DNA from: a virus
Strand: one strand, 5' to 3'
IMG/VR virus record: IMGVR_UViG_3300047160_007939
Location: 32,001-96,000 of that record
DNA length: 64,000 bases
The notes beneath the pieces were generated by a model. It was not told where the DNA came from, searched no databases, and was given only the letters and a program-made list of their open reading frames with translations. The translations under genes were made by a program, and so were the position numbers. Shown one piece after another: positions 8,290 to 38,046 of this stretch (its first letter is position 1; every line of letters starts with the position of its first letter).

Positions 8290-10334
8290 TCGTCCCTCGG
8301 AGAGATGCGAACCGTGCAGCGGTGCAGGTTGTATCCGGCTGCTACCCCAGCCTCAAAGGACTTTCCGAACGGCTTCTTCGGCTTGCCCGGCTTGCCCGGC
8401 TTGCCGGATCTTCCGGCTGGGCCGGCTGGCCGGCGGGCTTCCTCCTGCTTCTGGCGGAGCAGCGAGGCGTCCTCGGCCATCGGGATCCGCATCACGGAAG
8501 CTTCCCTGTCATCCGCCTGGGCATTCTGCCGCTGGAGCTGCATTTGCTGCTCGTTGTCGGCCATCTGCTGCATCTGCTGCTGCGCGCCCTGCTGGTTCGC
8601 CTGCTGCATCTGGTTGTCCGCGTCACTCTGGCTCTGGGCCATCTGGCCCATCTCACCCTGCGCCTGCTGCGCCGCACCCAGGTTGTGATCGCTCGCCCAT
8701 ATCTGAAGCATCCCCGGATTGCCTGCCGGCGCGTCCGCGTAGTCGCCCAGCTCGCCACCCATGTCGGAGTAGGTCTTCAGCACCGCCTCCTGGCGCGCTT
8801 CCTCGGTGGCAAACCACCGCTTCGTGTACTGCTTCCTGATGGCGTTCCAGAGCACGATGTCCTTCGGATCGTAGACCGGCGGCAGATCCCGCAGCGTCCT
8901 GATCTGGTTCATCGTGTAGCCGTTGGCGAGCCGCTCGGCGTCGAGCTGCTGCTCCAGCAGGTACGCCGGGTCGTAGTTGCTCTCCAGGCCCTGGACCACC
9001 AGCTCGAAGTCAGGATTGATCTTGGTGACGACGTTCTTGGAAAAGAACTGGCAGAGGAAGAGCACCTTCGGGATAAGCCCTTTGTGCTGGCTCTGCATAA
9101 AGGTGCTCTCCGGGTCGGGCATCTGTAGAGCCGAACTCGGCCCTCCGAACCCGGAGAACCCGAACTCCTCGGGAGCAATCTGGAAGACGGCTGCGGTGAG
9201 CGCCACGCAGAACTCGATGTAGGCCCTGAAGACCATATCCATCCGGGCGCGATCCATCATCTGGACCCACTGCGCGCCGGAGACACCCTGGCCGGGAGGC
9301 GTCCGCAGGACGGGGAACTTGTACTCCCCGCCGACCATAAATCCTACATCCTGGGTTAGCAGTTGCTGCAAACCATCGAGCTGGTCTTTCCCGTAGTGCC
9401 CGATGAGGTTCAGGATGCCGAACGGGATGTGGCTGTCGGTGAAGTAGTCCTTATTGTGGCGCACGGCGTAGATGACGCCCAGCACCGCATCGAGGCACTG
9501 CTGCACCTCGCTCTTGCCGTAGCCGAAGGAGGCGAAGTCGGTACGAGGATTGCGGATCCCCATGTCGCCTTCGTCCCACTTGTACTCGCGCACCACGCCC
9601 CAGTACGAGGTGGGATCGAGCATCGCGTAGACGATCTGGCCCGCGAGGTCGGGCCGCATCTTCGGCACGTACTCCTGGCTGTCCACCTTTCGCATCAGCG
9701 CGCCGTCTTCGGCAGCGAAGAACATCACCGGGTTGTCGCGCTTGCCGGCGATAGGGATGGAGCCTTCGATGCTGATGAAGATCCGGTCGATCACCAGCAT
9801 GTCCAGGATGACTTTGCGAAGGCAGGTGTCGAAACTGTCGGCTTTTCTCCGGTCGTGGCTGTCCCACACTGCCGGCTCGCCAGTGATCGGGTTCTCGCGC
9901 AGGATGCCGCCGTGCCGCAGGATCAGCTCGATGCGCTTCGCTTCGTTGGCCGCTGGCTCGGTCAGCTCTTTCTGCCGGTCGCGCTGAACCACCCGCATCC
10001 CGATGGCATTCTCGTGCGCGGGTTCGCGGAAGTGCGCTACAATCTGGTTTACCAGGGTGAAGAGAACCGCCTGGATGACGAGGTTCTTGTCAGCGAGGCG
10101 ACGGAGCAGGCTCGGCTCCAGGTGGGGCGTCTGGTCGTCCAGGATGCCGCTGTGGGTACGGGAGTAGCGGCGGATCTGGTCGTAGCGGCGGTCAGGGACC
10201 CAGCGAGGGCGAAGACCCCCGCCGGCTGCCTTCATCATCTGCTCGGCATAGGCAGCGAGCGCCTCGGTGGGCTGCCCGCCCGTGCCGACCATTCCCTGAT
10301 CGAACAGGCTTCCGCTGACGGCCAGCGGTGGCAT
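8286..10334 (-). CDS. phage portal protein
   Basis: Portal-type segment RNPRTD..GYGKSEV...NKDYF....PFGILNL, later IAPEEFGF and KGLIP motifs; Gln-rich C-terminal tail; 682 aa. Confidence 0.8.
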   Translation of the reverse strand: MPPLAVSGSLFDQGMVGTGGQPTEALAAYAEQMMKAAGGGLRPRWVPDRRYDQIRRYSRTHSGILDDQTPHLEPSLLRRLADKNLVIQAVLFTLVNQIVAHFREPAHENAIGMRVVQRDRQKELTEPAANEAKRIELILRHGGILRENPITGEPAVWDSHDRRKADSFDTCLRKVILDMLVIDRIFISIEGSIPIAGKRDNPVMFFAAEDGALMRKVDSQEYVPKMRPDLAGQIVYAMLDPTSYWGVVREYKWDEGDMGIRNPRTDFASFGYGKSEVQQCLDAVLGVIYAVRHNKDYFTDSHIPFGILNLIGHYGKDQLDGLQQLLTQDVGFMVGGEYKFPVLRTPPGQGVSGAQWVQMMDRARMDMVFRAYIEFCVALTAAVFQIAPEEFGFSGFGGPSSALQMPDPESTFMQSQHKGLIPKVLFLCQFFSKNVVTKINPDFELVVQGLESNYDPAYLLEQQLDAERLANGYTMNQIRTLRDLPPVYDPKDIVLWNAIRKQYTKRWFATEEARQEAVLKTYSDMGGELGDYADAPAGNPGMLQIWASDHNLGAAQQAQGEMGQMAQSQSDADNQMQQANQQGAQQQMQQMADNEQQMQLQRQNAQADDREASVMRIPMAEDASLLRQKQEEARRPAGPAGRSGKPGKPGKPKKPFGKSFEAGVAAGYNLHRCTVRISPRDE

Positions 10335-23711: not shown

Positions 23712-24056
23712 TTAACTTTCGCTTCCGGCATCCAGACACCTCTCGATCTGGCTGATCAGCCATACAGCCATCTCCGGCGTCAGCTCGGTCATACAGCGGC
23801 CAGGGCTGGGTTCGATCTTCATATTCTCCGGCCCGTCATACCAGAAGGTCTTCTTCGGCCAGAAGCTGAAGGCCAGCTTCACCTCGCCGGGCTTGTCGCT
23901 CGGCCACACCTCAAGCAGCATCCCATCATTGGTGATGAACTGAAGGCCCCGCCGGTCCAGCGGCTTATACCGGCGTGCCTCGGGGATCGTCCCCTCCTCC
24001 GGCGATCCGCCCACCTCCGCCATTGCCATTCTTCCCTTTCCACGCGCCAATGCCAA
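23712..24056 (-). CDS. hypothetical protein
   Basis: Operon context. Confidence 0.45.
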   Translation of the reverse strand: MALARGKGRMAMAEVGGSPEEGTIPEARRYKPLDRRGLQFITNDGMLLEVWPSDKPGEVKLAFSFWPKKTFWYDGPENMKIEPSPGRCMTELTPEMAVWLISQIERCLDAGSES

Positions 24057-24233
24057 GCGCGGCCAAGCCAGCCGGCACAGTCACGCTTGCCTGTCCTTCG
24101 AGGAACATCCGGGCGCGGTCACTCAAGCTCTTCCTCGTTGAACACCAGAAGAGCACGATGCCCACCACGATGATCACAATCCCAGGCAGATAGGCTTTCA
24201 CCGCGTTCCCCTCCCAGGAAGAACGTCGGCTTA

Positions 24234-24935
24234 TCAAGCGTCGAGCACCGCGTCTATCGCGGCCAGCAGGTCATCGTAGCGGCCCGCCGAAGCCAGTCGG
24301 CTGCCGTCCGCGAAGTCGTAGACAAAGGTATCCCGATTGGCTTCCCGCAGCGCGCCGCGCGCTGCCGTCAGGTGCTCGCGCAGAACGTCGTGGCTGGGCC
24401 AGCGGGTTGAGAGCGTCGGCCCGCTCCCCCACGGGATGCGCTCACCGGGCGGCACGAGGTCGAAGCTCTGGCTCTCCACCACACACTCGAAGCTGCCGTT
24501 ATGCCAGCCACGGGTCTGACGGTTCACCACGATCAGGTCTTCGGGCATCGCCGACGCCACCTCGCAGCCCGTCTCCGGCCCACGTAGAGATACCTGGAAC
24601 CCGGTTCGCGCGTGTAGGAACAGCTCGGGACTGAAGGCCACGATCCGCCACGGCTGCGGGTAGTTGGTCCAGTTGTGGGTCCAGTAAAGCGCGCCCGCTT
24701 CCATCCCATCCGGCAGCGGCCTACTGCCGAGATTGATCGGCTCTTCCCACGTCTTTCGCAGGGCAAGCCGGAACTCTTCGAGCTGCTCGGGTGTCCACGT
24801 TGCGCTTTTCAGCGTCAACACGCCCAGCGGCGGCACAGCCGGCCTGCCGGCCCGATGGATGCCGAGATAGGCCAGGGGCGCTGTCAGCACGCCCAGAATG
24901 GCTCCCAGCACACTTCTACGGTTGGTCTGTTCCAT
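24234..24935 (-). CDS. hypothetical protein with twin-arginine-like N-terminus
   Basis: MEQTNRRSVLGAILGVLTAPLAYLG; begins just after TIGR array 2. Confidence 0.55.
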   Translation of the reverse strand: MEQTNRRSVLGAILGVLTAPLAYLGIHRAGRPAVPPLGVLTLKSATWTPEQLEEFRLALRKTWEEPINLGSRPLPDGMEAGALYWTHNWTNYPQPWRIVAFSPELFLHARTGFQVSLRGPETGCEVASAMPEDLIVVNRQTRGWHNGSFECVVESQSFDLVPPGERIPWGSGPTLSTRWPSHDVLREHLTAARGALREANRDTFVYDFADGSRLASAGRYDDLLAAIDAVLDA

Positions 24936-24948
24936 CGCTCTATACTCT

Positions 24949-25357
24949 CGGTTCTCTCGCGCGAAACGGCTCACTCCTACTCGTCGGTTCTCTTGACGAT
25001 TGCGGCTCCGCTCCTACGGCTCGGTTCACTCCCAATGGACGGCTCGCTCCCAATGGACGGCTCGCTCCCAATGGACGGCTCTCTCCAGTACCTCGGCTCG
25101 CTCACGCGGCCCGGTTCTCTCTCTCCGCAGACGGCTCGCTCTCGATCTTCGGTTCTCTAGTACGGGTCGGCTCGCTGCGCTCATTCGGTTCTCACGCGCC
25201 ATTCGGCTCCGCTAGGCTCTCTCGGTTCTCTCACCCCCACTGGCTCGCGCATAAGGTGCGGTTCTCTCCACCGACACCGGCTTGCTCACGACGTTCGGTT
25301 CCCTCCACTTCAGCGGCTCGCTTCTTCCACGCGGTTCACTCTTTAGCAACGGCTCAC
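24949..25357 (-). repeat. TIGR-like dual-repeat array 2 (longest, ~23 repeats)
   Basis: Alternating AGAGAACCG/AGCGAGCCG (minus reading) with mostly 9-nt spacers; starts at the terminase stop codon. Confidence 0.9.
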
Positions 25358-28300
25358 AGGATGACACCCCCACGGCCACGGAGCTTGCCGATCTTACCGA
25401 GTGTATCACCCACTACACTATACTCCGGTCGCGGGTCGTTCTCGTGATCCTTCCCCGTCATCTCCCTGCCGGCGAGGAACATCTGGTGATCGGCACGGTC
25501 GGTCCCCAGGTAGCTGATGTCCCCCACGTTGGCGTAGTAGGTCGCCGAGAGCTGCCACGCGATCATCTCGGCATCGCAGAGGTCTTTGGCTCCCTTTCCC
25601 CCATAGGCTGATGTAGCAGGGTGGTCGATCTTCCGGTTGTTGATGAGCTGCACCTCGCGGAGCTGGTTCCTGGCCCGCTCGTGCTGGGGGTAGCCCGGCT
25701 TTGCGGGGAGCAGCCAGAGCAGGTTGTTGTTCAGCAGCGTCTTACCGTTCCGGTACATCCCGAGCTGCTCCGGATTGGACATGTCTTTGGCATCGCAGGG
25801 GATGCCCCACGATCGTACTTCCTGGATGATGCTCTCCGCCTGCCAGCGGTCGAACTTCATACCACCGACACTGGCCCCGCCTGCTTGAACGACATCCACG
25901 AGCTGGCGGAGCACATCTCGCACGTTGCCGAAGTCCACGGCCAACCGGTTCCGTTTGTCGGGCTTCCACTCCAGGAGTAGATCCTCAACAACGACCGCAC
26001 GTCGCTGCTCTTCAATGATGTCGTTGCCGAGGAGGTCTTTCGCGTAGACGGGCGTTCCGTCGTCTTCGAGGCGTAGAACCTTCGGGGCGGCGATCTTCTG
26101 GCCCGTCTCTTCAGCCAGCCCCCAGAACTGGTCCTCATTCGCATTCGGAACTCTCCCGCAGTGGTCACAGCGCCACATCGACGGCTCCCACGGCTTCTTC
26201 CTGAAGAGCGGCTGCTTCTTCGGGTCACTGCTTCGCGGGATCTTCCTGGGCCGGTAATGCTTCGCGTAGCGGCGCTGCCGGATCAGCCAGCACGCCGGGC
26301 AGCACTTCCCACCCTCTTCGCTGGGGACGATGTGCGAGATACAAAGGGCGAAGCTGTCCTGCTCCAGCCCCGCGTCCCCACCCACGAAGTAGATGATGCC
26401 CGGCCTGATACGCCAGTCCGAGAGAAGGAGCGCCACGTAGCGGTGCGTCTGCTGGTCCGAGGTGAGGTGCTCGGTAACCGTGTTCTCCACCTGCGCCATC
26501 GGCTCGATCATCGCCCGCCTGCCGGCTGTCGCCGCTTCCTCGATCTTCTCCGGCTGGGAGATGAACGCGCCCTCGGCTGCCGGCGGGTTCGTCTCGTAGA
26601 CTGCTTCGTAGAGGTCCGGGTCGTCGCGCTTCACCTGCGCCATCACCGGATCGGCTGCGTGCCACTCGCCGAGATAGTAGACCTTCTGCCAGTCGCGCCA
26701 GGGAATGACGATGCGCGTCGGAGCACGGTCGCCCCACCACTCGGGCGTGGCCCCGCCGAGGTTCTCACACTGCCGCAAGCCTCCCAGGATGAAGCCGTTC
26801 AGGGCGCGCGGCCAGGAAATGACGAAGCCCCACTGGAACGCGCCGAAGCGGTTACTGGTACGGAGCGTGTTGAAGCACGCCGTTGCCGCATCGTGGCCTT
26901 CGGCATCGCGGAGCGCATCCGCTTCATCCAGCACCCAGCCGAGGGTGTTCTTGCCTTCCGCGCTCTCGTTCTTCGAGTTCAGCGAGTGGACGCGCACGCA
27001 GGGAACCCGGTAGTCGTAGCCGGGCATCAGCTTCCAGAACTGCGTGACGTTGGCCTGGATGTCGCCTCGCGGCCCACGGTCGATCAAACCATCGAAGCAG
27101 GGCTTGCCGATGTGCCGAACGAAGCGGTCGTAGAAGTTGGACTTCGCGGCCCGAGCGTCCTGGGCCATGTTGATGAAGTCGAAGTAGTCGCCGTTGGCGT
27201 GCCGGAAGTGGACCCACGGATTGACCATCTGCTGGATCACCCACGCCGCATAAGCGTAGATCCAGGATACGAGGGTGTCTTTGCCCGAGTTGGCGTGTAA
27301 CGTGCCCCCGGCATCGAAGTAACAGTGTGTCCCACCCACGGTGAGGCTGTAGAAGTCCGCTACCCTGGTTGGCTCGATGGCGGTTATCTTGCTATACTTG
27401 GTGTATGCCAGTCCCACTAGACCACGAACTTCGCGCCCGTATCGTCGCCCTCTATGCCGAGGGGAAAAGCTCCCCCGAGATAGGCCGCATCGTAGGCAAG
27501 CACGCAGAGACGGTGCGCTATCACCTCCGAGGAGCCGGCGTGCGCGTCCGCACGAAGTCGGAAGCGAAGCTTCTGCTCGGACCCCGCCCACTGCCAACCC
27601 CCGTTGAAGTGATCGTCCAGGCTTACGAAGAGGGCTGGCCGCTAACCGCGCTATCCGCCGCGTTCGGCATCGCCGAAGAGACACTACGCCGACATCTCCA
27701 TCGAGCCGAACTAAAGATGCGAGCGCGGGGCCATGTTCCGGGCCGCTACGCGCCGCAGATCGAAGAGGCAGGCGACTACGTGTCTGTGACGCGCCGCGAT
27801 CACCCTCTTGCGGACGCAAATGGACAGGTGATGGCACATCGGCTGGTAATGGAAGCGCACCTGGGGCGCTTCCTGACGGCTGAAGAGGTCGTCCACCACG
27901 AGAACGGCATCCGAGACGACAACCGGATCGAGAACTTACGCCTCTTCCCCAGCGACCGAGAACACGCTCTTCATCACTGGCAAGAGTGGAAGACGCGACA
28001 ACTATCTCGTCCCCCACTTCCAGATCCACCAGCTTCTGCCAGCCAGCCGGCGAAAGAAAGCGATGCTCTCCCGTCACCTCGCTCTCCCGGCCATCCGCCA
28101 GCGTAACGCGATAGAGCTGGGCCGTGCCCTTCCGATAAACGGGTGACGCCTGCCGGTAAACGACGCGCTCCCCATCCCACGACCGCACCAGAAGCGGCGT
28201 GCCCAACTGCGCCCACTCCCCCATCGTGCGCGTAATTCCCGTGACCGCCGTGCTATAATCAGTCAGAAGACTTGTCTTTGATGTGCAACCTTTGCCCCAG

Positions 28301-28617
28301 CACAGCCACGCCACGTTGACGTGCCTCGGCCTGACGTACCAATCCGAGGCGTGCAGGCCGATGGACTGCTCTAGCGCCCACTCTTGCCGGGGGGTAAGCG
28401 GCGGATCGCCGAGGTACTGCGGGGAGGTGACGAACTCCGGCAAGCTGGGAATGTGCATCCCCACCGGCCACGGCCACTGCCGGAATGCCTTTCTCAGCAT
28501 CTGCCGGCCAGCCGGCAGCGATGCCTCGCGGATGACGCTTGAGAGCGCGCCGCGCCGGATCGCCTCTTCTTTCATCTGCCGGCGCAGGTCTTCGAGCTGC
28601 GCTTCCGAGACGGGCAT
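25354..28617 (-). CDS. terminase large subunit, intein-containing
   Basis: Split Walker A GKG|SGKDT, Walker B VLDEAD, RNase H-like GGDAG...DSFA, FDRWQ and KIDHP...KDLCDA motifs. Confidence 0.9.
27390..27404 (+). promoter_or_regulatory. extended -10 promoter for a leaderless antisense HNH mRNA
   Basis: TGcTATACT 6 nt upstream of ATG 27405. Confidence 0.55.
27405..28106 (+). CDS. HTH-HNH homing endonuclease encoded antisense within the intein
   Basis: Two HTH-like repeats, then HRLVME.HLGR.L...EVVHH.NG.RDDNR.ENL. Confidence 0.88.
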
Positions 28618-28673
28618 TCCTCACTCCGGGAGATTGGTTCCGGTAGCGTGTTCACTACCGGAACCGGCTTCTC

Positions 28674-28778
28674 CTACCTGCCAGCCGGCTGGCCGGCCTG
28701 CTGCATCGCCCAGACGAAGAGGGCAAGCCCCCACGCCCAGACTACGAAGCAGCCCAGCACGACGTAGAACGCCTTCAC
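28674..28778 (-). CDS. small membrane peptide (34 aa)
   Basis: GTGA overlap; hydrophobic VVLGCFVVWAWGLALFVW. Confidence 0.4.
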   Translation of the reverse strand: MKAFYVVLGCFVVWAWGLALFVWAMQQAGQPAGR

Positions 28779-30214
28779 GACGCTCCCACCGGCCCGTTGC
28801 GGTATCCCGCGCTGATGTCAGAGAGCATCGCCCTGATCGTCTCGGTGTCGTCCGCGAACCGCTGGCGCTGTCTTTCGGCTTCGGCTTCCAGCTCTCCGAT
28901 GCGCGCCTTCAGCCGGTCGTTCTCCGCCGCTATCTCTTTGGACGCCTCGTTGACCGCCTCAAGCGCGCCCCAGAGACGCACGCGCGGGTCCATCCCACCG
29001 ATGAGCAGCAGCTCTCCGTGGCCGTTCCCTTCGTCCAACACGACGACGGACGTGTTGGCTTCCTCATCGTCGTGCCACTCCTCGGCTCGCTCTTCCTCCG
29101 GCTCTGTCTCATCCCAACCTGTGTTGGCAGGCGCGAAGACATCGCTCACGTCTACCGCTGCCAGTTCTTCCTCGGTCGGCGGCTCGAACTGGCGCTCGCT
29201 GTCAACGGTTCTCTCGATAGTAGCGGCTTGCTCGTGGATGTCGGTTCTCTCATCGTGGTCGGCTCGCTCGTCGGGGTCGGTTCTCTCCGGTCGGACGGCT
29301 CGCTCTTGCGGCTCGGTTCTCTCCACTGCACCGGCTCGCTCATCTGATACGGTTCCCTCGTCTACGACGGCTCCCAGAGCCTGCTGTGCCAGTTGGGTGG
29401 ACAGGTCAGGGAGCGGGGCAAGCCCACACATCACCAGCGGATCGACGTTGAGTGCCGCCGACACCTGCTTCAACCGCTTCTGGCCGCAGCCGGTGTAGCG
29501 GCCATTCTCCCAACAGTCGAGGCTGGCTTTGTTGATGCCGCTGATGTCGGCCAACCCCCAACGGGTCAGGCCGGCTCGCTCTCGCAGCTCGCGGAGCACG
29601 TCGCCGTCAACGTGCTCCAGGTCCTTCGGGGGTCCACGGTGGGCTGCCGGCTTGCTGGCCGGCTCGGGCAACACGGCGGCTGCGCCGTTCGGCTGGGGAG
29701 GCGCGGCATCCACCTCCTGAAGATACTCCACGTTGGTCTTCAGCACGCTCGCCAGCTTCGCCCACCGGTCGGGCATCGGGGTATACAGCCCCTTCTCCCA
29801 ACAGCGGATGACTTCCGGCGAGACGCTCATCCGGCTCGCCACCTCACGCCGCTCCATCCCGGCATCCTTCCTCGCCTGGATGATCCGGTCAGGGTTCAGC
29901 GGCGGCACAGGCGAAGGGTCTTCCGTCGCACCCGTGCAGTAGTCCACGGACACGTCCAGGAGCTTGGCGACCTTCACCAGCATCCCGGTACGCATACTCC
30001 GCTCGTGCGTCTCCCATCGCTCAACCTGGGTCGCCATCCCGCTACTGTGGCCCAGCCTGCCGGCAAGCTGGGCGCGGGACCATCCCTTCTTCTGCCGGGC
30101 GTTGGTCATCCGCTCCGGCAGCGTTCGCAGTGTCGTCAGCAGCTCGGCGCGCGTGCCCGCCTGGGAAGGCGTGGGCGCGGGCCGGCCTGCGGCCTGGCCT
30201 GCGGCCTGGGTCAT
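28775..30214 (-). CDS. triple XRE-type HTH protein with array-derived linker and coiled-coil tail
   Basis: Three HTH_3 units (ARQKKGWSRAQLA, ARKDAGMERREVA, LRERAGLTRWGLA); AAAGGAG RBS. Confidence 0.85.
   Translation of the reverse strand: MTQAAGQAAGRPAPTPSQAGTRAELLTTLRTLPERMTNARQKKGWSRAQLAGRLGHSSGMATQVERWETHERSMRTGMLVKVAKLLDVSVDYCTGATEDPSPVPPLNPDRIIQARKDAGMERREVASRMSVSPEVIRCWEKGLYTPMPDRWAKLASVLKTNVEYLQEVDAAPPQPNGAAAVLPEPASKPAAHRGPPKDLEHVDGDVLRELRERAGLTRWGLADISGINKASLDCWENGRYTGCGQKRLKQVSAALNVDPLVMCGLAPLPDLSTQLAQQALGAVVDEGTVSDERAGAVERTEPQERAVRPERTDPDERADHDERTDIHEQAATIERTVDSERQFEPPTEEELAAVDVSDVFAPANTGWDETEPEEERAEEWHDDEEANTSVVVLDEGNGHGELLLIGGMDPRVRLWGALEAVNEASKEIAAENDRLKARIGELEAEAERQRQRFADDTETIRAMLSDISAGYRNGPVGAS
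29206..29374 (-). repeat. TIGR-like dual-repeat array 3 (in-frame inside the HTH gene)
   Basis: 10 alternating repeats, all with 9-nt spacers; translated as ER(A/T)xxx repeats. Confidence 0.88.
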
Positions 30215-30268
30215 CGGGAAAGTCTCCTTTCTGTTCCCGAGTGGCGGGGCGCTAGTGCCCCTGGCACA

Positions 30269-30309
30269 ATTATAACGTCAACGAGCCTGCGTTACAACGC
30301 TATCATTGT
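30269..30309 (-). promoter_or_regulatory. promoter of the HTH gene with overlapping 14-bp operator-like motif
   Basis: TTGTAA-N17-TATAAT; AACGCTATCATTGT at 30296-30309. Confidence 0.6.
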
Positions 30310-30532
30310 GCCTTTTGGCTCTCTGCCGCTCAACAGACGGCAGAAGAACACCGGACTTCCGGCAGCGCCGGAAGTAAGCCTCACGGCACGGATGCGAGCA
30401 GTACAGCCCACGCCCAACAGTAGAGAACTGCCTGCCACACTCCAGACAGATCCGGTTCTTCAGCCTTCTCCTGGCTGCCAGCTCGCGGCCCTGCTCGGGC
30501 GTGCGGACAATGTGCGGGTTCGACTTTCTCAT
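30278..30532 (-). CDS. small Zn-finger protein
   Basis: CLECGRQF...YCSHPC. Confidence 0.6.
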   Translation of the reverse strand: MRKSNPHIVRTPEQGRELAARRRLKNRICLECGRQFSTVGRGLYCSHPCREAYFRRCRKSGVLLPSVERQRAKRHNDSVVTQAR

Positions 30533-30567
30533 AACGCTATCATTGTCACTTGCGACACTGCCGGCTG

Positions 30568-31056
30568 TCAAGCAGCCTGCCGTCCACCACGCTTCTTCTC
30601 GAAGATCCGCGCCCACCGCTCGTCCTTCGCGCCCTCAATACAGGCTTGCCGGTCTTTGCAGTACTTCACGTTGTAGCTGGCACAGCCCACCGGCAAGCCC
30701 ATCGTGTGACTGATGTCGTGCGCGTGAACGCCGATCCGACTGTCGGGCCGCTCCTCTTTGCACACGTCGCACACCCAGGTTACGTTCGCCCACCAGTCTA
30801 CGTGCCCCGTCACCTCTGCCTCCGGCTTCTTCTCTCGTCTACCCTGGTAGCGCGTGTAGATGCACGGCTTCACGTAGGGCGGCAGCGCCGGCTTCGTCTT
30901 CTCCAGCTCGCCACGAAGCACCCGCCGCATCCGACTGCAAAAGGCACAGTCGCAATCCCACGCCGTTTCCCAATACCCCAGCCGCGCACATCGAAGCGTC
31001 TTGAGCGCCTCCTGGAAGTGAAACTCCAGCGTATCCGCTTCCGGCTCTCTTCTCAC
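30568..31056 (-). CDS. hypothetical Cys-rich protein
   Basis: WVCDVC...NVKYCKD..C. Confidence 0.5.
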   Translation of the reverse strand: MRREPEADTLEFHFQEALKTLRCARLGYWETAWDCDCAFCSRMRRVLRGELEKTKPALPPYVKPCIYTRYQGRREKKPEAEVTGHVDWWANVTWVCDVCKEERPDSRIGVHAHDISHTMGLPVGCASYNVKYCKDRQACIEGAKDERWARIFEKKRGGRQAA

Positions 31057-31676
31057 CAGTCATCGTCGCCTCTCCCCTTCGTCCGTTCCGTGGCGACTTC
31101 CTGAACCTTCTCATCCACGTTATCACTCGGCCTTTCGGCGTCTTCATCTTCTTCGCCGGCCTGCCGGCTTATCTCCATCGACTGCCGCTTCAGCACTTCC
31201 GCCAGAGCGATGCCTTCTTCGATCCGCAGGTCAATCTGCACGTCTGCGTCATCATCCGGCGGCATCCCCGCCGCCCAGCGTGCCCCTGCATCGATCCCCA
31301 CGAAGAGCACCGTGCTCCGCTCGTTCCCGCGACCGCTCTCGATGGCTTCCTTCGTGAGCACCTGCATCGCTCTCCGCAGTATCTCCACCTCTTCGGGCGT
31401 CCTGCTCGTGTCGAGCCTCGGTACGAGGACCTCTCCGGCGTCACACCCTGCTGCGTTCGCTGCCTGGGCCATCTGGACGGCCTGCTGCGCGTGCGCGTCT
31501 TCTTTGTCCTGCGGCGGCAGATGCAGCGCCCACTCCAGGGCACAGCGCATCGCTCTCACGATTGCCACCGCTTCCCGCTTCACACCGCTGCCGTCTTCGT
31601 TCCGGTGCTCCATCTGCCGAGCCAGCATCGACCCCAGACCCTCATACGCCTGGATTATCTCGACCTCATCCCTCAT
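31053..31676 (-). CDS. hypothetical protein (207 aa)
   Basis: AAAGGAG RBS. Confidence 0.6.
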   Translation of the reverse strand: MRDEVEIIQAYEGLGSMLARQMEHRNEDGSGVKREAVAIVRAMRCALEWALHLPPQDKEDAHAQQAVQMAQAANAAGCDAGEVLVPRLDTSRTPEEVEILRRAMQVLTKEAIESGRGNERSTVLFVGIDAGARWAAGMPPDDDADVQIDLRIEEGIALAEVLKRQSMEISRQAGEEDEDAERPSDNVDEKVQEVATERTKGRGDDDW

Positions 31677-32448
31677 CCCCGTCGTTCTCCTTTCCTTCGT
31701 CGTCCGTCTCCACTACGGCCTGCGCTTCGATGACCTCGGGTGGGCCATTCCTCGCGGCAAGCCGCTTCTCTTCCAGCTCGACTTCCCCGAGGAACTGCTT
31801 CAGGAAGCCGTCAATCGCCCTGTCCAGCAGCTCTTCCCCGATCACCTCTGCCGGCGCGGTGTCCGGGTTCAGCGTACCGATGCTTGGTCCCGCCGCCAGC
31901 CCTGCCACGGCTCCCGTCTGTACCAGCACCGTCTGCTGCATCGGCATCGCTGCCGGCTGGCCGGCTCCGACCTTCGGCGGGACCACCGGCCAGCCTACCA
32001 GCGGTGCGATGATCGTGGTGAACTCCTTCAACATCGCTATCCCACGCTCAAGATCCGAGAGCGTCAGCTTCGCGTTCTCGTCTCCCCACTCCCGCCGGAA
32101 CAATCCGAAGAGCCTCTCCTGCACGTCGCGGGCCATCACCACGCTGTCCGCGACCAGCAGCTCCCGCTCCACCGCAGCTTTTCTGCCCCGCTCTTCCGTC
32201 TCCTTCACGTCGGCATCGACGGCCTTCTGCTGCATCCAGGCATCGTAAGCCGCCGCTCTCGCCGACCAGTCGTTGTGGCTCTGCCACTCGTAGAGCGAGC
32301 TTTTCGCGTTCTTGCTCCACTTTTCCGCCACTTTTGCTATGCTTCGCCTCGGTCCTAACTCCAGGTAACGCCGGAAGGCTTCGTAGGCTCTCTGGCTCTC
32401 GTGGCTTTGTTTCTCCCACGCCGCTGGGATGTCGGATGCTTCGCTCAT
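31666..32448 (-). CDS. terminase small subunit-like protein
   Basis: WE.Q..ES.RAYEAF..Y..LG..RS..KVA...W....W..RA.AYD motif. Confidence 0.7.
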   Translation of the reverse strand: MSEASDIPAAWEKQSHESQRAYEAFRRYLELGPRRSIAKVAEKWSKNAKSSLYEWQSHNDWSARAAAYDAWMQQKAVDADVKETEERGRKAAVERELLVADSVVMARDVQERLFGLFRREWGDENAKLTLSDLERGIAMLKEFTTIIAPLVGWPVVPPKVGAGQPAAMPMQQTVLVQTGAVAGLAAGPSIGTLNPDTAPAEVIGEELLDRAIDGFLKQFLGEVELEEKRLAARNGPPEVIEAQAVVETDDEGKENDGDEG

Positions 32449-32660
32449 AGGGTTCGGTTCCCTCGTACTTCCCGGCTTCGCTCGTCCGCTACGGTTCTCT
32501 AGCCCGCTATCGGCTCACTGCTCTGGCCCGGTTCTCTCGCGCTTCACGGCTCGCTCTTATTCTTCGGTTCTCGCAGCAACTTCGGCTCGCTCCCACGTTT
32601 CGGTTCTCTCGCGGAAGGTGGCTCGCTCCCGCTGCCCGGTTCTCTCTTCAGCGCCGGCTT
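32438..32660 (-). repeat. TIGR-like dual-repeat array 4 (upstream of terS)
   Basis: ~12 alternating repeats with 9-10-nt spacers; the terS ATG lies in the last spacer. Confidence 0.88.
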
Positions 32661-32661
32661 C

Positions 32662-33006
32662 CTATCGCCTGTTAAGTAAGCCCGATACCAGCACCCGCGC
32701 TGTCCACTCCTCTCCCATCACGAAGGAAAGCGCCTTCTCGAAGAGCGCGAGGTGCTGGCCTTCATCCACGATGGCAAAGAGGTGCGCGCTCTCCTCGTCA
32801 GGAAAGCGCAGGTAGAGACGCTTGTCCTTTACCCGCTCGGGTTTCACGTCGTACTTCGTCAGGATGTTGACCGCCGCCTGCCCACCCAGCCGCCGCAGCA
32901 CTTCCAGCACGCGCCGGCCACTCGCCTGGATGCGCTGGATGTCTTCCGCGTCCCCCACCGGCTGATCCTCAACCGGCGTGAGAGTGATGCCGACCAGCCG
33001 GCTCAT
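32662..33006 (-). CDS. hypothetical protein, weakly resembling the DnaX (gamma/tau) C-terminal domain
   Basis: P......LYLRF......H..........FEKALSFVMG....V pattern. Confidence 0.4.
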   Translation of the reverse strand: MSRLVGITLTPVEDQPVGDAEDIQRIQASGRRVLEVLRRLGGQAAVNILTKYDVKPERVKDKRLYLRFPDEESAHLFAIVDEGQHLALFEKALSFVMGEEWTARVLVSGLLNRR

Positions 33007-33376
33007 CTGCCGCGCTACCCGCCGGCTCCGGCCTACCTGCCGTCTGTCTACTCGTATCAGTGCCGTGTTCTCCTTTCAGCCGCGCCACTTCTTCCCGCAG
33101 TGCGGCAATCTCGTCCCCGATGGCTGCCACCTTCACTGCCTCTTTGTGCGACCTTCGGAGCGGTCCCAGGATACGGCGCAGCGCGCCCGTGAACTGCTCC
33201 GAAGTCCAGGGCTTGCCCGCTTTGGCGTGCCGCTCCGCCATCGTAATCATCGGCCAGAGCATCGCGTCGGTCCACTCCAGGGCTTCCTGGAGCCGCTGCC
33301 GCTCGGCTTCGCTGGCTTCCAGGCCCGCTCGAAGCCCGCTGATCGTAAGCCGCGAGGCGTCGATCACCCGCGTCAC
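32969..33376 (-). CDS. hypothetical coiled-coil protein
   Basis: GTGA overlap with the methyltransferase stop. Confidence 0.5.
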   Translation of the reverse strand: MTRVIDASRLTISGLRAGLEASEAERQRLQEALEWTDAMLWPMITMAERHAKAGKPWTSEQFTGALRRILGPLRRSHKEAVKVAAIGDEIAALREEVARLKGEHGTDTSRQTAGRPEPAGSAADEPAGRHHSHAG

Positions 33377-34119
33377 CGGCGCAGTTCCCCCACCACGAGG
33401 TACGAGTGGTTCTTCCTCGCCGTCTTCTGGAAGTCGTAGCGCATCGCCGGAACCGTCTCTTGCACCAGCACCAGGATGTCCACAATCCTGAAGCCGAAGA
33501 GTTCCAGGAGCTGGATCACCTCGCAGTGGGTCAACCGCTGCCGGTTGCTCTCTATCTCGTCCTGACACTTGACCAGTACCTTTCCGCCAATCACCAGGAT
33601 GCGCGCCGCCGAAAGTAACCCCGCCCCGTAGAGGCGAATGATACTTTCGTGGCTCTCGTTCTCGTTCAGGTAGCATTTATTGATCGACTGCTTGACCGTC
33701 TGCCCGCCGTGCATATAAGGCGGATCGAAGAGCACGGCATCGAAGTAGCGGCTCTCGCAGCAGTCCAGCCAGCGAAAATCCGCTTCTACTACATCGTAAT
33801 CGTCTGCTTTAACAGGATGAAGGTCGAACTTCTCCAGCAGGTAGTCCCGCTCGTCCAGCTCCTTCCACCACACCCCGCGACCGTAGGTGATGTCCGCGAC
33901 CTTCGTACCCTTTGCGACATACAGCTCGAAGGCGTCCGCAATCAGTCTCGCGTTCCCACCCACCCTCGCGGTAAGTACCGGGCCGGCCTGCCTGCCATTC
34001 CTTCCGGCTGGCAGGTCAGGCTGGACCGGCTCTGCTTCCTCTCCCCGGTTCTCTACACCCCTAACGGCTTGCTCTGCCACAGCGGTTCTCTCGTCGCCAA
34101 CGGCTCGCTGCCGGCACAC
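33373..34119 (-). CDS. amino DNA methyltransferase (DPPY); start uncertain, within array 5
   Basis: VADITYGRG motif I, FDAVLFDPPY, KCQD, ARKNHSY. Confidence 0.8.
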   Translation of the reverse strand: MCRQRAVGDERTAVAEQAVRGVENRGEEAEPVQPDLPAGRNGRQAGPVLTARVGGNARLIADAFELYVAKGTKVADITYGRGVWWKELDERDYLLEKFDLHPVKADDYDVVEADFRWLDCCESRYFDAVLFDPPYMHGGQTVKQSINKCYLNENESHESIIRLYGAGLLSAARILVIGGKVLVKCQDEIESNRQRLTHCEVIQLLELFGFRIVDILVLVQETVPAMRYDFQKTARKNHSYLVVGELRR

Positions 34120-34181
34120 GGTTCTCTCTGATGGTTCGGCTCGCTCACGGACATCGGTTCTCTCGATCTACGCGGCTTGGT
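34027..34181 (-). repeat. TIGR-like dual-repeat array 5 (directly downstream of the Tas gene)
   Basis: 9 alternating repeats with 9-10-nt spacers; the Tas stop codon lies in the first spacer. Confidence 0.9.
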
Positions 34182-35334
34182 CACCCCGTCGCCGGTGCTC
34201 CCTCGCTTCCCGCAGGCCGGGGAAGAAGTGCTCGTTCGGCGGCGGGATGTAGTCGATGTGCCCCAGGATCCCGATCACGTAAGGAGCTGGCGTCGGCGTC
34301 TTGAACCTCTCCCAGAACATCACCTCATGAAGATGCGAGAGGAAGAGCTTCACCGCGTACCGGCGTGCCCGAAGATCGATCCGGCCATCCGGCAGCCGGC
34401 CCTCTTCGTAAACGCGCTTCGTCGCCGTGTCCCGGCTCCAGTCCTTCTCGGCCAGCGTGCGCTGGGCAGTCTCGGCAAAGCGGCCTGCCGCGTTCCTCTC
34501 CATCTCCAGCTCCTTCCGCTGCTCGTAGACTTTCCCGTAGAAGCAGTCGGGCCAGTTGTGGAACTTCACGAAGCAGTCGCCTGCCTTCCAGCAGAGGGTC
34601 TTGAAGCCGTCGTGGTAAGGCCGGCGGGCAAGAGCTGCCGCCACGTTCTCCCTGGAGAGCTTCCGCTGCTTCCCGTCCTTATCCGTCTCGGCAAAGCGCA
34701 GCACGGTCGCCGGGTTCAGGCCGGCGTGCGGGCACGCCCGGCGTACCACCTCTTTCCAGTAGGCATCGCCGTCTTGCCCCCGCTTCTTTCCGTGCCCCTC
34801 GCGCTCCATCTCGCCGATCACGCGCGCCAGCACCACCGCGCCGTCCTTCTTGCCCAGCCAACGCTGGGTCGGGTCCAGGCCGGCGTGCCGCCAGATGTCG
34901 CCCACCGTGCTCGCTCGCTCGATGTCGATGTAGGCCATCAGCCCCGCGCTGATCACCGGTCCCACTCCTCGTTGGCTCTTCAGCCACCGGCCCACCGGCT
35001 GCCCATCCGTCCAGATGTCGAGCATCGTCTTCACCTGATGCTCCTGGCGCATATCCTGGCCGGCCAGCCACTTGATGAGCGTGCAGGGTTCGCCCGATGC
35101 CTCCAGCGCACGTACCTGGTTGCAGGCTGTCGCGCGCAGGTGCTGCATCGCGTAGTAATAGTCCACGAGGTAGCGCACCTCGCGGGGCTGAAGCGCGATA
35201 CCCGCTTCCTTCAGGTCCCTCTTCAGCTTGTCGAGGGGAAGCAGCATAGCCACCCACTCGGGATCGAGGCTTGCCCGCACCGCCGGGTCATCCAGATCCG
35301 GCGGCTCCTCAAACGGTCTTCGCTCGTCACTCAC
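34168..35334 (-). CDS. Nop-domain RNA-binding protein, TasA-like (IS110 C-terminal homologue, no RuvC/HNH)
   Basis: YY.MQ..R....NQ coiled coil; WL.S.RGVGPV.SA.L...IDI......IWR.AGL; K.LCWK....FVK; Y...Y..RK..E; RARRYAVKLFL.H; P.PY....LGH...I.PP; flanked by arrays. Confidence 0.85.
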   Translation of the reverse strand: MSDERRPFEEPPDLDDPAVRASLDPEWVAMLLPLDKLKRDLKEAGIALQPREVRYLVDYYYAMQHLRATACNQVRALEASGEPCTLIKWLAGQDMRQEHQVKTMLDIWTDGQPVGRWLKSQRGVGPVISAGLMAYIDIERASTVGDIWRHAGLDPTQRWLGKKDGAVVLARVIGEMEREGHGKKRGQDGDAYWKEVVRRACPHAGLNPATVLRFAETDKDGKQRKLSRENVAAALARRPYHDGFKTLCWKAGDCFVKFHNWPDCFYGKVYEQRKELEMERNAAGRFAETAQRTLAEKDWSRDTATKRVYEEGRLPDGRIDLRARRYAVKLFLSHLHEVMFWERFKTPTPAPYVIGILGHIDYIPPPNEHFFPGLREAREHRRRGDQAA

Positions 35335-35385
35335 GGTCTATTCTCCTTTCATCACAGTCCGAACAATCTCGGCGCTCCAGTCATT

Positions 35386-35559
35386 CAGTTCTCTATTACA
35401 CCACGGCTCGCTACTCGTGGACGGTTCTCTCGTCGCCTGCGGCTCGCTCGAAGGCATCGGTTCTCTCGTAATCGTCGGCTCCGCTCCGATTAAGCGGTTC
35501 TCTCCATCCGGGCGGCTCGCTCGTAGCGTCTCGGTTCACTCCACAACAACGGCTTTCGC
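35386..35559 (-). repeat. TIGR-like dual-repeat array 6 (directly upstream of the Tas gene)
   Basis: 10 alternating repeats with 9-10-nt spacers. Confidence 0.9.
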
Positions 35560-36390
35560 GGCTTCCAGGTAGTCTTCGACAATCTCGAAGCCCACGAAGT
35601 CCAATCCCAGGCTGACGGCAGCAGCTCCGGCGTGCCCGATGCCGAGGAACGGGTCGAGTACGGTCTTCACCCGCTCCCTGCCGTGGAGCAGGATGCACTT
35701 CCTCGCCAGCTCGGTCGGGAAGGTGGCCGGGTGCGGACGCTGCCCGGCCCGGCTCTTGATCGTCTTGTAGGGTACGAACCAGACGTTCCCACGGCAGCGC
35801 CGGTCCACCCCACCGGGCTTTGCCCAGCGGGTCACGTTGCTCTTGTCCTGGTAGGGCACGCCCACGGCCAGCCGGTCCAGCGGCACGTCCCCCCGCTTCG
35901 TGAAGTGGAAGACGTACTCGTGGCAGTCGGAGAGGAAGCGCGGGCTGCTGATCGGCTTCAGGTGACCTATGGCTATATCACCTGTGATCCCAGGATAATC
36001 GCCCACGTCCTTCTTCTCGATGGCGATGCTCTTCACCCAATGGATGACATTCTGGAGTTCCAGGTGCTTCCCCACCACCATCGACACCAGGAACGGGACC
36101 CACGGATCGGTCGGCTTGCTTCCCAGCACCAGAAAGAGCGAACCATTCGGCGCAAGCACCTCATTCGTTGCCCTCGCCCACCGGTCCATCCACTCCAGGT
36201 ACTCGCCTCGCGGCCCACGGTCATCGTAGCCGCTGTACTCCACGCCGATGTTATAGGGCGGCGAGGTCACCACCACGTCCACGCTGCCGGGGTCCAGCCG
36301 GCGGCGCATCCCTTCCACGCAATCCTCGTGGAAGAGACGCACCCACGACCGGCCTACCCGCGCTTCATACGCGGGCCGCTCTAGGGTCAC
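35536..36390 (-). CDS. beta-class N4-cytosine/N6-adenine DNA methyltransferase; start uncertain, within array 7
   Basis: VVTSPPYN, HPATFP, VLDPFLGIG. Confidence 0.88.
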   Translation of the reverse strand: MTLERPAYEARVGRSWVRLFHEDCVEGMRRRLDPGSVDVVVTSPPYNIGVEYSGYDDRGPRGEYLEWMDRWARATNEVLAPNGSLFLVLGSKPTDPWVPFLVSMVVGKHLELQNVIHWVKSIAIEKKDVGDYPGITGDIAIGHLKPISSPRFLSDCHEYVFHFTKRGDVPLDRLAVGVPYQDKSNVTRWAKPGGVDRRCRGNVWFVPYKTIKSRAGQRPHPATFPTELARKCILLHGRERVKTVLDPFLGIGHAGAAAVSLGLDFVGFEIVEDYLEAAKAVVVE

Positions 36391-36652
36391 GGTTCTCTGC
36401 TGTATCACGGCTAGCTCGGTTGACACGGTTCTCTCTGATAACACGGCTCGCTTCTCTGTCTCGGTTCACTCGCTATGGCCGGCTTCGCTCGCGCGTGACG
36501 GTTCGCTTCGCTGACGTGGCTCGCTCCCACTTAACGGTTCCCTCTGGAACAACGGCTCGCTCGTACCGAACGGTTCTCTCGTGGTTTGCGGCTCGCTCAT
36601 GTACGGCGGTTCTCTATCTGATTGCGGCTCCGCTCCTACTGCACGGTTCTCT
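36372..36652 (-). repeat. TIGR-like dual-repeat array 7
   Basis: 16 alternating repeats with 9-nt spacers. Confidence 0.9.
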
Positions 36653-37042
36653 CTCTCTCTCGCCCTCCGGCTCCGGCAAGCCCAACCTGCGCCGGATCAC
36701 CTGCTTCTCAATCTCCATCCTGGCTTGGCAGGGTGGACACTGCCGGCAGTCTTCCGGTATCCACAGGTCGGGCCGCTCGATGAACTGGACCTTATGGCCG
36801 GGATTGCGACACGCCTTCGCGCTCTCCAGTGTCTCGGGAATGCCGCGCGACTTCAGGACCTCCACCGGCCCGCCGGCCAGCCCGCCGGGAAGGTTCTGCC
36901 AGCCAGCCGGCAAGCCGGCTTTCTCTGCCTCGGTCAAAGCCCTATGTAAGCAGAGGGTGATGTTCATTCGGAACAACCGCTCGCGCTCCAGGTCACCGAC
37001 ACCTGCGAGTGTTCGGGCCAGATGACGCTCGCCGCTCTCCAT
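36614..37042 (-). CDS. hypothetical protein; 3' end runs into array 7
   Basis: GGAGG RBS; C..HKVQF...C..C..C. Confidence 0.55.
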   Translation of the reverse strand: MESGERHLARTLAGVGDLERERLFRMNITLCLHRALTEAEKAGLPAGWQNLPGGLAGGPVEVLKSRGIPETLESAKACRNPGHKVQFIERPDLWIPEDCRQCPPCQARMEIEKQVIRRRLGLPEPEGEREREPCSRSGAAIR

Positions 37043-37260
37043 TGCCTCCGGGGTCCAGTCGCCCGTGGCAATCAGCTCCCCGTTCCCGTCCCGACGTGAT
37101 ATGCTTGCTAACCATACGGGGGACCCCCCGAAGGCGTCACTTCATATATTCACGCTGATGACGGTCCAGACGCCGGGGGCAACCTCCTTCGCCATCGGTC
37201 GGCACACCTCGGCGGCTCCCTCGCCCCAGATGTGCCGGTACGCATACTCCTGCTGCCCTG

Positions 37261-37593
37261 TCATCCCTCTCGCTCCTTTCTCTCCCTGGCCTTTTGGCCC
37301 AGCTCCGTCCCGATCTTGATGCAGTCTTCGGTACTCGGGCGTCCCACCTCGGCGATGGGTCCGAAGAACGGGTGCGCGCACCGGAACAGCCGCTCCACCC
37401 GCTCCCGCGTCTCGTCGCTGTAGTATCCGGCCTGATAACCCAGGTTGTGGCGCACCACGTCTTCGGCCTTCTTCCGCGTGAAGGCCGGCTCCTCGGCCAG
37501 CACCTCGGCCACCAGCACCTCGAAGACGCGATCCGCCTCTTCTTGCGTCTCGGCGCGCATCGCCGGCCCGTAGCGGTCATCGTCGGTCATCAT
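37261..37593 (-). CDS. hypothetical protein
   Basis: NLGYQAGYY...RERVERLF...HPFFG motif seen in phage hypotheticals. Confidence 0.6.
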   Translation of the reverse strand: MMTDDDRYGPAMRAETQEEADRVFEVLVAEVLAEEPAFTRKKAEDVVRHNLGYQAGYYSDETRERVERLFRCAHPFFGPIAEVGRPSTEDCIKIGTELGQKARERKEREG

Positions 37594-37734
37594 CGCCGCG
37601 CCCCTCTTCTTCCTCGCGCTCCATCAGCTCCCGCTCGCAGTCCCTGCACATCAGGAAGCCGGTGCGCGTCCATACCTCGTCCTTCGGGTTGGGGATCGGC
37701 TGGCCGCAGCTCTCGCAGTTGTGGGGGACGGCCT

Positions 37735-38046
37735 TCACTTATGAAACCTCTCCGAGTAGGTCATCCCCGTCGCCTTCGCAATCTTGTTTGTCAGTTTGAT
37801 GGCCGCTATTGCTCGCTTCGCATCCTCGGGCATCTCGGCCAGCTCCTCGGGCGTGGCCGGCCTGCGCCGCATCTCCTCGTCAAAGAAAGTCACGTCGCCA
37901 CACTCGACACAAACCGAGGCATCCCCCGGCTGGGGACCCCGCTCTCCCGTGGCGTTGCTCGCCAGATCGAAGTGGTGGCCGCAAACAACGCAGACGCCGT
38001 GCGGCACGACGTACTCGCCCTCTTTCAACGGCCTGGGGTGGCTCAC
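37735..38046 (-). CDS. hypothetical Zn-binding protein
   Basis: CVVCG...P.PGD.SVC.ECG. Confidence 0.6.
   Translation of the reverse strand: MSHPRPLKEGEYVVPHGVCVVCGHHFDLASNATGERGPQPGDASVCVECGDVTFFDEEMRRRPATPEELAEMPEDAKRAIAAIKLTNKIAKATGMTYSERFHK

Follow-up and report, generated by a model that had tools for sequence, protein, structure and literature searches.

What is a strictly periodic array of short repeats doing inside the coding sequence of a phage regulator? The question is raised by a 64,000-nt stretch of viral DNA (the window in what follows; bases 32001-96000 of the 119,514-bp IMG/VR virus record IMGVR_UViG_3300047160_007939; GC 64.5%), where an open reading frame (ORF) with three helix-turn-helix (HTH) domains carries ten such repeats in frame. 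Our analysis supports the idea of a guide-RNA array that was implicit in the initial annotation of this locus: the repeat arrays of the window are very probably of the TIGR (tandem interspaced guide RNA) kind, and their cognate TIGR-associated (tas) gene, of the tasA type, lies at 34168-35334. The argument turns on the following features.

28775-30214, minus strand: triple-HTH ORF, 479 aa
Protein of this ORF, 479 aa: three HTH_3 (XRE-type) domains at aa ~30-260, array linker at aa 280-340, followed by an acidic stretch (aa 341-405) and a long C-terminal helix (aa 410-473)
29188-29377, minus strand: in-frame dual-repeat TIGR array in the HTH gene, encoding ER(A/T)xxx at aa 280-340
34168-35334, minus strand: tasA-like gene, 388 codons, for a Nop-domain TIGR-associated protein without HNH or RuvC

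The ten in-frame repeats described in the initial annotation are confirmed. On the plus strand the units start at 29206, 29224 and so on to 29368, each step being exactly 18 nt, and over their span of 29206-29377 the minus-strand ORF has no stop codon. Two plus-strand repeat types, CGGTTCTCTC and CGGCTCGCTC, alternate strictly. Read on the sense (minus) strand, a loop repeat GAGAGAACCG (at 29350, 29314, 29278, 29242 and 29206) alternates with an edge repeat GAGCGAGCCG (at 29332, 29296, 29260 and 29224), with 8-nt spacers between them; 9-nt repeats with 9-nt spacers and the 10-nt conserved core with 8-nt spacers seen in the sequence logo are the same layout and differ only in the choice of boundary. 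The two sense-strand repeats, (G)AG-AGAA-CCG and (G)AG-CGAG-CCG, both start with AG and finish with CCG. The middle of the first, AGAA, is A-rich and loop-like, and that of the second, CGAG, is edge-like, its end bases C and G being able to pair. Exact cores account for seven of the ten; two more show a single mismatch each, and the final one, at 29368, shows three. On the sense strand this last unit (29368-29377) is 5'-truncated and retains only the 3' half of an edge repeat, while a half edge repeat at 29188-29197, at the sense-strand 3' end of the array, retains the 5' half. Truncated edge repeats are found at both ends of a second in-gene array as well, that in the primase gene (12819-12828 and 12711-12720). 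Five 36-nt guide RNAs (tigRNAs) are predicted from the array in the HTH gene and three from that in the primase gene.

This anatomy can be set beside that of published arrays. Dual-repeat TIGR arrays are described as consisting of two alternating repeats of 8-12 nt with spacers of ~9 nt; the repeats start with a box D and end with a box C, in the published form UG...CCA, that covary between edge and loop (Faure et al. 2025, PMC12045711). Loop repeats are reported to be A-rich in the middle, and edge repeats to form an additional base pair inside their boxes (PMC12045711; TIGRFinder, 10.64898/2026.09.09.750476), and truncated edge repeats at the array ends are given as the norm (PMC12045711).

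The repeats are far more frequent than in shuffled sequence. The core CGGYTCKCTC occurs 44 times in the window, compared with 2.04 +/- 1.48 times in 100 shuffles, none of which reached 44, and 40 of the 44 copies are on the plus strand. The pattern of two alternating cores (A-8N-B-8N-A) was found in 33 stretches of IMG/VR contigs, and the phages carrying it are diverse (GC 58-69%; complete genomes of 43-61 kb). Across 23 sequence sources, T-type to C-type succession at 18 nt was counted 172 times and C-type to T-type 170 times, same-type neighbours occurring only twice; the 8 nt between cores were of random composition, with no bias. A search of the representative genomes of 185,579 prokaryote species gave no match to the motif and thus no clue to the host.

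The partner of these arrays was found by comparing all proteins of seven motif-bearing phage genomes against each other. A single protein family was common to three or more of the genomes, that of the gene at 34168-35334, and it was present in all seven (the cluster also drew in the HTH ORF and two short ORFs that span arrays). The tasA-family gene abuts or is flanked by arrays in 7/7 genomes with constant relative orientation, the layout of a tas gene flanked by arrays being the same in the six other phages. Here, tasA lies 4.8 kb upstream of the HTH array and 21.3 kb from the primase array. The combination of tasA and arrays is the only shared family of seven otherwise unrelated genomes (GC 58-69%, 33-119 kb; loci L044-L061), which suggests that the module moves horizontally between phages as a unit.

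The TasA-like protein has at least 1,541 relatives in a large protein collection, nearly all of them unnamed; a tblastn search of the phage collection gave no match at E 1e-5. A profile built from 25 sequences matched TasR (9mty) with an E value of 2.6e-21, TasH with 1.7e-8 and IS621 with 4.7e-5, and also matched ISCro4. The AlphaFold2 (AF2) model is all-helical (pLDDT, the predicted local confidence, 88.8), with coiled-coil helices from about residue 24, and its ten best fold matches in the PDB are all TasH or TasR, each with probability 1.00. Residues Tyr351 and His358 align with Y289 and H296 of SpTasH, the pair reported to cut the precursor of tigRNAs (PMC13421893). Neither varies in an alignment of nine sequences, SpTasH among them; across the 25 sequences aligned for the profile, H358 is again invariant and Phe stands in place of Y351 in 3/25. 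No nuclease Pfam domain was found, the sole Pfam match being a weak one to Transposase_20, and the N-terminal HNH of SpTasH has no counterpart. As neither an HNH nor a RuvC domain is present, the effector is of the TasA type. We also considered an IS110-family transposase, defined by an N-terminal DEDD RuvC-like domain and a Tnp domain with a catalytic Ser, and rejected it: there is no match to DEDD_Tnp_IS110, and the matches to IS621 and ISCro4 are confined to the RNA-binding region held in common, their fold-search E values of 0.25-0.33 lying far below the Tas structures in rank. PHROGs labels the family 'transposase' (phrog_4285), which looks like a misleading mis-annotation.

A mismatch-tolerant scan recovered 82 repeats, 36 of them with exact cores, in seven arrays over 24 kb; the rest of the 119.5-kb genome holds single scattered cores only. 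In addition to the array in the HTH gene, these are:

12711-12828 (12729-12828 in the scan), minus strand: in-frame TIGR array in the primase gene, six repeats and a 3' half edge repeat
24949-25359, minus strand: intergenic TIGR array between the large-terminase stop and the next gene, 21 scored repeats
32437-32664, minus strand: intergenic TIGR array upstream of the small-terminase gene, 13 repeats
34046-34202, minus strand: TIGR array directly downstream of tasA, 9 repeats, the first degenerate units overlapping the last tasA codons
35386-35559, minus strand: TIGR array directly upstream of tasA, with the methyltransferase gene on its other side, 9 repeats
36372-36616, continuing to ~36655, minus strand: TIGR array of at least 14 repeats upstream of the methyltransferase gene at 35536-36444, overlapping the ends of both neighboring ORFs

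All arrays are co-oriented with tasA and with every gene of the region. The best preserved of the seven is the array in the HTH gene, with 7/10 exact cores; the primase array has 3/6.

The arrays between genes show some irregularity. That at 24949-25359 has steps of 19, 20 and 37 nt and a triple 18-nt duplication, in which the spacer CCAATGGA (plus strand) appears three times running at 25022-25093 and C-type cores succeed one another with no T-type core in between, which has the look of a recent slippage duplication. Across all sources, 2.5-3.0% of spacers in neighboring units were within 2 mismatches of each other, compared with 1.6% of random pairs, giving no clear signal of duplication and divergence. 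Degenerate outer units of intergenic arrays overlap the end or start codons of neighboring ORFs at 34168-34202, 36372-36444, 36607-36655 and 24949-24974, and the last ~11 codons of tasA lie within the outer units of its array; the edges of arrays seem to have been absorbed into the adjacent coding sequences. Dispersed multi-array loci are not unique to this phage, as another TasA-bearing phage contig, L109 (IMGVR_UViG_3300027821_000007), has eight arrays of period 18/36 over ~4 kb downstream of its tas gene (10.9-14.7 kb of the locus).

Two of the seven arrays are thus situated within genes of other function, and the way in which they are read there is informative. The host gene of the second is the following.

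12042-13097, minus strand: DNA primase gene with a Toprim domain, matching phrog_47 over aa 20-314 and hosting one in-gene array

In the HTH gene the repeats are read as GAG-AGA-ACC and GAG-CGA-GCC, giving ERT or ERA followed by three variable residues (aa 280-340). The primase frame lies one base later, AGA-GAA-CCG and AGC-GAG-CCG, and gives REP or SEP ((R/S)EPxxx, aa 88-123). The resulting linkers are 61 residues long and acidic in the HTH protein and 36 residues long in the primase. Of the Arg codons in the two in-gene arrays, 12/13 are AGA or CGA, which make up 14.6% (5.4% and 9.2%, respectively) of the 1,202 Arg codons in the remaining window genes. Third-position GC (GC3) drops to 0.64 in the HTH array, compared with 0.84 upstream and 0.79 downstream. 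Because the same cores are read in two frames and use rare AGA and CGA codons, the constraint on the in-gene arrays acts on nucleotides and not on the peptide, as had been proposed from the two reading frames in the initial annotation. The further proposal that in-gene arrays avoid off-period variants in order to keep the frame stands in its first part: none of the 14 steps in the in-gene arrays departs from the period, compared with 11/64 in five intergenic arrays. Selection for frame is consistent with this contrast in step length, which alone is not statistically significant (binomial P = 0.07, Fisher P = 0.20).

Within the primase, the array sits between the zinc-finger part (CHRCH motif at aa 50-54) and the catalytic domain. 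DnaG-type primases in the PDB align to the phage protein only from aa 145, which places the array before the catalytic domain and does not in itself prove an insertion. Searches for relatives of the primase gave no match in IMG/VR or by tblastn in 50,697 phage records, and a pairwise comparison with the primase of a Salicola phage was uninformative.

These observations suggest a mechanism in which the seven dual-repeat TIGR arrays would serve the nuclease-less TasA at 34168-35334 in this uncultured 119.5-kb phage. Lying on the same strand as tasA and all genes of the region, the arrays would be transcribed as part of phage mRNAs. TasA dimers would engage edge and loop repeats at their two ends, box D (AG) and box C (CCG), and the conserved loop with Tyr351/His358 would cut within edge repeats to release 36-nt tigRNAs, each with two 8-nt spacers that would pair with opposite strands of a DNA target; the nuclease-less complex would then block the transcription or replication of the target instead of cutting it. 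The in-gene arrays would occupy interdomain linkers, their exact 18-nt (six-codon) period allowing the same DNA to be translated also, and guide production from them would presumably cut the HTH and primase mRNAs. Transcription of the arrays, TasA-dependent cutting of edge repeats, guide function and repression of targets are steps that we infer from the published biochemistry of the family: TasA proteins such as FpTasA are reported to bind 36-nt tigRNAs (PMC12045711), and RNA-guided binding of target DNA and repression of transcription in reporter assays are described for MbTasA (Xu et al. 2026, 10.64898/2026.09.09.750476). We incline with modest confidence to this explanation as a whole, and regard the processing of the in-gene units into working guides as evenly poised.

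Several results weigh against this explanation. Both boxes depart from the published form: box C is CCG here and not CCA, the last base being changed identically in both repeats, and box D is AG and not UG, a difference shared by the array of the Salicola phage (AG-NNNN-CCA). Of the seven terminator-like sites in 24000-38000, none is at the 3' end of any array, and shuffled sequences had 8.3 +/- 3.0 such sites; a rho-independent terminator after the array is described as typical of dual-repeat arrays, though not defining (PMC12045711). The TM-scores of the TasA fold matches are modest, 0.40-0.45 (query-normalized), in part owing to an insertion of ~75 residues. No targets stood out: the 26 units tested against the phage's own genome had no exact or one-mismatch match and 11 two-mismatch matches, compared with ~10 expected by our own estimate, and 294 units searched against the seven phage genomes gave 18 matches, compared with 15-33 in ten shuffled controls (with targets of 16 nt, large collections cannot be searched meaningfully). 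Finally, the AF2 model of the HTH protein, made without an alignment, is too poor (pLDDT 47.4) except for a confident helix at aa 410-473, and so cannot show the array stretch to be disordered.

The placement of arrays within genes is rare. Among the 23 sources with the same motif, only this phage has arrays, two in number, that lie within an ORF whose coding-type sequence extends for 50 aa or more to either side; a third candidate, in L011, had no coding signature and was rejected. We further took 80 IMG/VR loci with relatives of TasA, with up to 10 kb on each side, in which Tandem Repeats Finder (TRF) detected 122 arrays of period 18/36 in 65 loci. None of these 122 arrays is enclosed by a sense-strand ORF that leaves 70 aa or more to either side of it. 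The same length filter let through nine array-by-frame combinations, every one of them antisense to tas. The five inspected were rejected, four lacking a coding signature and one being a Gly-rich coding repeat and not a TIGR array; the remainder are three frames of L070 and the L109 array at 10912. Among the 15 papers listed of 6,777 matches in a full-text literature search, only the preprint of Xu et al. describes intragenic TIGR units, and these lie within tas genes; its supplementary annotations might hold others. TIGR-Tas itself is already known, having been described in 2025, and the class is not new; what appears to be new is the presence of dual-repeat guide arrays in frame inside primase and regulator genes, far from tas, in a genome with seven dispersed arrays.

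Such rarity would also be expected if the two in-gene arrays were ectopic copies derived from the arrays near tasA, tolerated in flexible linkers where they left the frame intact, making no useful guides and neutral or slightly harmful. We consider this unlikely, while granting it more weight than the other alternatives. Apart from the rarity of embedding (0/122 arrays in the TasA-relative loci, and only this phage's two among the 23 sources), it agrees with the shortness and poorer preservation of the primase array (3/6 exact cores) and with the failure of every unit to show a target in searches of this phage and the six others. It sits less well with the HTH array, which has the highest share of exact cores (7/10) and complete truncated-edge ends, and with the rare AGA and CGA codons, which have not drifted to the preferred synonyms. 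The preservation of the HTH array and its undrifted codons indicate either ongoing selection on the RNA or DNA motif or a very recent origin.

A second alternative concerns the host protein: the 479-aa ORF might not be one protein, the HTH gene ending before or in the array and the coiled-coil part being made separately, in which case the open frame would have no meaning for the protein. An 18-nt unit in the HTH frame has only ~2 free codons, and by our own estimate such an array would be open by chance fairly often; indeed, 39 array-by-frame combinations are open in the 23 sources. The protein collection contains a separate 68-aa protein identical to aa 412-479, and the joined halves of the HTH protein are found in no homolog. 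The 68-aa entry, however, comes from a contig of 1,367 bp and is probably a fragment, and the gene calls of 444, 475 and 479 aa in other assemblies of the same phage all run through the array, one copy differing by a single residue (V297A) at a spacer-encoded position. The GC at codon positions 1/2/3 is 0.69/0.53/0.84 upstream of the array and 0.73/0.44/0.79 downstream, in the same frame, and the acidic stretch at aa 341-405 has coding-type values of 0.77/0.37/0.75, again in the same frame. In-frame start candidates from residue 297 to M408 are limited to GTG356, GTG392 and TTG393, and for GTG356, the only candidate assessed, the 20 nt upstream have no purine-rich, Shine-Dalgarno-like stretch. 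Since the coding signature keeps its frame on both sides and there are few start candidates, one continuous protein is favored; translation of the HTH ORF through the array is likely, and two separate products are improbable.

Homologs add little to this question. The whole HTH protein found only itself and one 811-aa protein at 27% identity, its N-terminal 275 aa found only itself in very large protein collections, and its C-terminal 140 aa, searched against 1.84 billion representatives, found only the identical 68-aa fragment. A pattern search of IMG/VR for relatives of the HTH protein gave 11 stretches fitting the pattern, none of them a relative, and a search of metagenome contigs for strain variants with a 26-nt flank query gave no match. 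Because neither half has homologs beyond copies of the same protein, the fusion of the HTH gene to a downstream coiled-coil ORF envisaged in the initial annotation offers no split and fused forms to compare.

That a phage DNA-binding protein, for instance the triple-HTH protein itself, recognizes the repeats as double-stranded iterons or operators, in autoregulation or at an intragenic origin, is suggested by their regular phasing, their presence in several intergenic regions and the position of one set inside a multi-HTH gene (the lambda O gene has an origin within itself), and is highly improbable given that 22/23 other motif records match the HTH protein only over its array residues (query ~264-367) and one has no match, that a homolog of the HTH domains is present in 0/23 of them, that a tas gene adjoins the arrays in 7/7 genomes compared, that the repeat anatomy agrees nearly base for base with a validated guide array (that of Salicola phage CGphi29), and that the strand bias (40/44 exact cores) and the shared orientation with tas are more in keeping with an RNA than with symmetric operators. 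Once the link to Tas had been found, we also dropped the ideas of iterons or centromere sites, promoter arrays, Chi-like sites, Rho-utilization sites and protein-sponge RNA.

If the arrays are guides for TasA, as we favor, the protein might act on the phage's own messages in addition to a foreign target: its accumulation would lead to cutting of the primase and HTH mRNAs at defined sites, in effect an RNA-level timing switch. We regard this as a speculative extension with little probability. If true, the switch would shut down replication priming and an early regulator in a manner coupled to guide production, and the units that separate packaging-operon cistrons would be cut likewise. One stretch of DNA would in that case be a protein linker, a guide RNA and a cis-acting cleavage site.

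The minus strand carries all genes from ~8 kb to 54.6 kb of the window. Among the neighbors of the arrays are:

8286-10334, minus strand: portal gene
25354-28617, minus strand: large terminase with intein
31666-32448, minus strand: small terminase
35536-36444: DNA methyltransferase gene, one of two methyltransferases in the minus-strand region

Further minus-strand genes encode DNA polymerase A, a DnaB-type helicase and an O-like initiator. The intein in the large-terminase ORF (25354-28617) is indicated by a weak Intein_splicing match, and a gene with HNH_3 and HTH domains lies within this ORF on the opposite strand (27369-28106, plus strand). An Rfam scan identified four consecutive tRNA genes at 17852-18406 (minus strand), among late genes; these were its only matches, none falling on the arrays. 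In the 350-nt gap upstream of the HTH gene there is a promoter-like site, TTGTAA-17-TATAAT (10/12), at 30297-30269 (minus strand). Given this site, the HTH gene with its embedded array may begin a transcription unit of its own; the region has four promoter-like sites, compared with 1.5 +/- 1.4 in shuffled sequences, which is not clearly above expectation.

The natural role of TIGR-Tas systems, and with it the targets of the spacers, the origin of the arrays and the co-transcription of tas and array, is called open in the source papers (PMC12045711; 10.64898/2026.09.09.750476). The phage described here provides a compact natural test case, in which a TasA that retains the Tyr/His pair is combined with seven arrays in mRNA orientation, including two that are dual-coding in genes of known function. 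If TasA cuts the in-gene arrays, the mRNAs of the primase and the regulator are cut also. That arrays can become established 21 kb from tas and inside genes bears on the question of their origin. Surveys restricted to the flanks of tas, as well as gene callers, will miss or mis-annotate in-gene arrays; the effect of gene callers is illustrated by NC_020844 (L062), the genome of Salicola phage CGphi29, where an annotated hypothetical coding sequence at 15290-15490 overlaps the start of a validated TIGR array, a spurious protein being made of it.

How does the system compare with those already known? Alternating repeats, the 18/36 period, boxes shared by both repeats, edge- and loop-type middles, a tas gene adjoining the arrays, truncated ends and the Tyr/His pair, all traits of dual-repeat TIGR systems, are found here. 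The closest parallel is SpTIGR (PDB 9W03/9W04). The array downstream of tasH in Salicola phage CGphi29 (NC_020844) has the repeats AAGACAACCA and AAGCGAGCCA with 8-nt spacers, and its edge AAGCGAGCCA and loop AAGACAACCA correspond to GAGCGAGCCG and GAGAGAACCG here, in both cases as 10-nt repeats with 8-nt spacers. In both systems the array is on the tas strand and phage-borne, and the Tas protein combines a Nop domain with a Tyr/His pair spaced alike, by 7 residues. The proteins are only 26% identical in alignment, however, and SpTasH, which cuts DNA, carries an HNH nuclease at its N-terminus; our protein has none. Around tasH, in the stretch examined, there is one array, just downstream, and a hairpin and T-run resembling a terminator follow it. 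The present phage has seven arrays dispersed over 24 kb, all lacking a terminator, and two of them are embedded in other genes. With the nuclease-less FpTasA and MbTasA our protein shares a solo Nop domain and a coiled coil, a comparison made by family and description only.

As in CRISPR systems, a repeat-spacer array is transcribed and cut into guides by an associated protein. Unlike CRISPR, TIGR systems are described as having two alternating short repeats, with two short spacers per guide that address opposite DNA strands, and neither a Cas1/Cas2 adaptation module nor a protospacer-adjacent motif (PAM) (PMC12045711). For the location within genes, the nearest precedent is that of Xu et al. 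2026, who report intragenic tigRNAs in the tas genes of BlTasA and others, in frame and in regions that are disordered and lie between elements of secondary structure (10.64898/2026.09.09.750476). That survey extended no further than 10 kb to either side of tas; its text places units only relative to tas (10.64898/2026.09.09.750476). As in the BlTasA type, TIGR units here lie within a coding sequence and leave its frame intact; unlike there, where the host, as described, is tas itself and the units are mostly of the stem-loop type with the dual repeat rarer, the hosts here are a primase and an HTH regulator.

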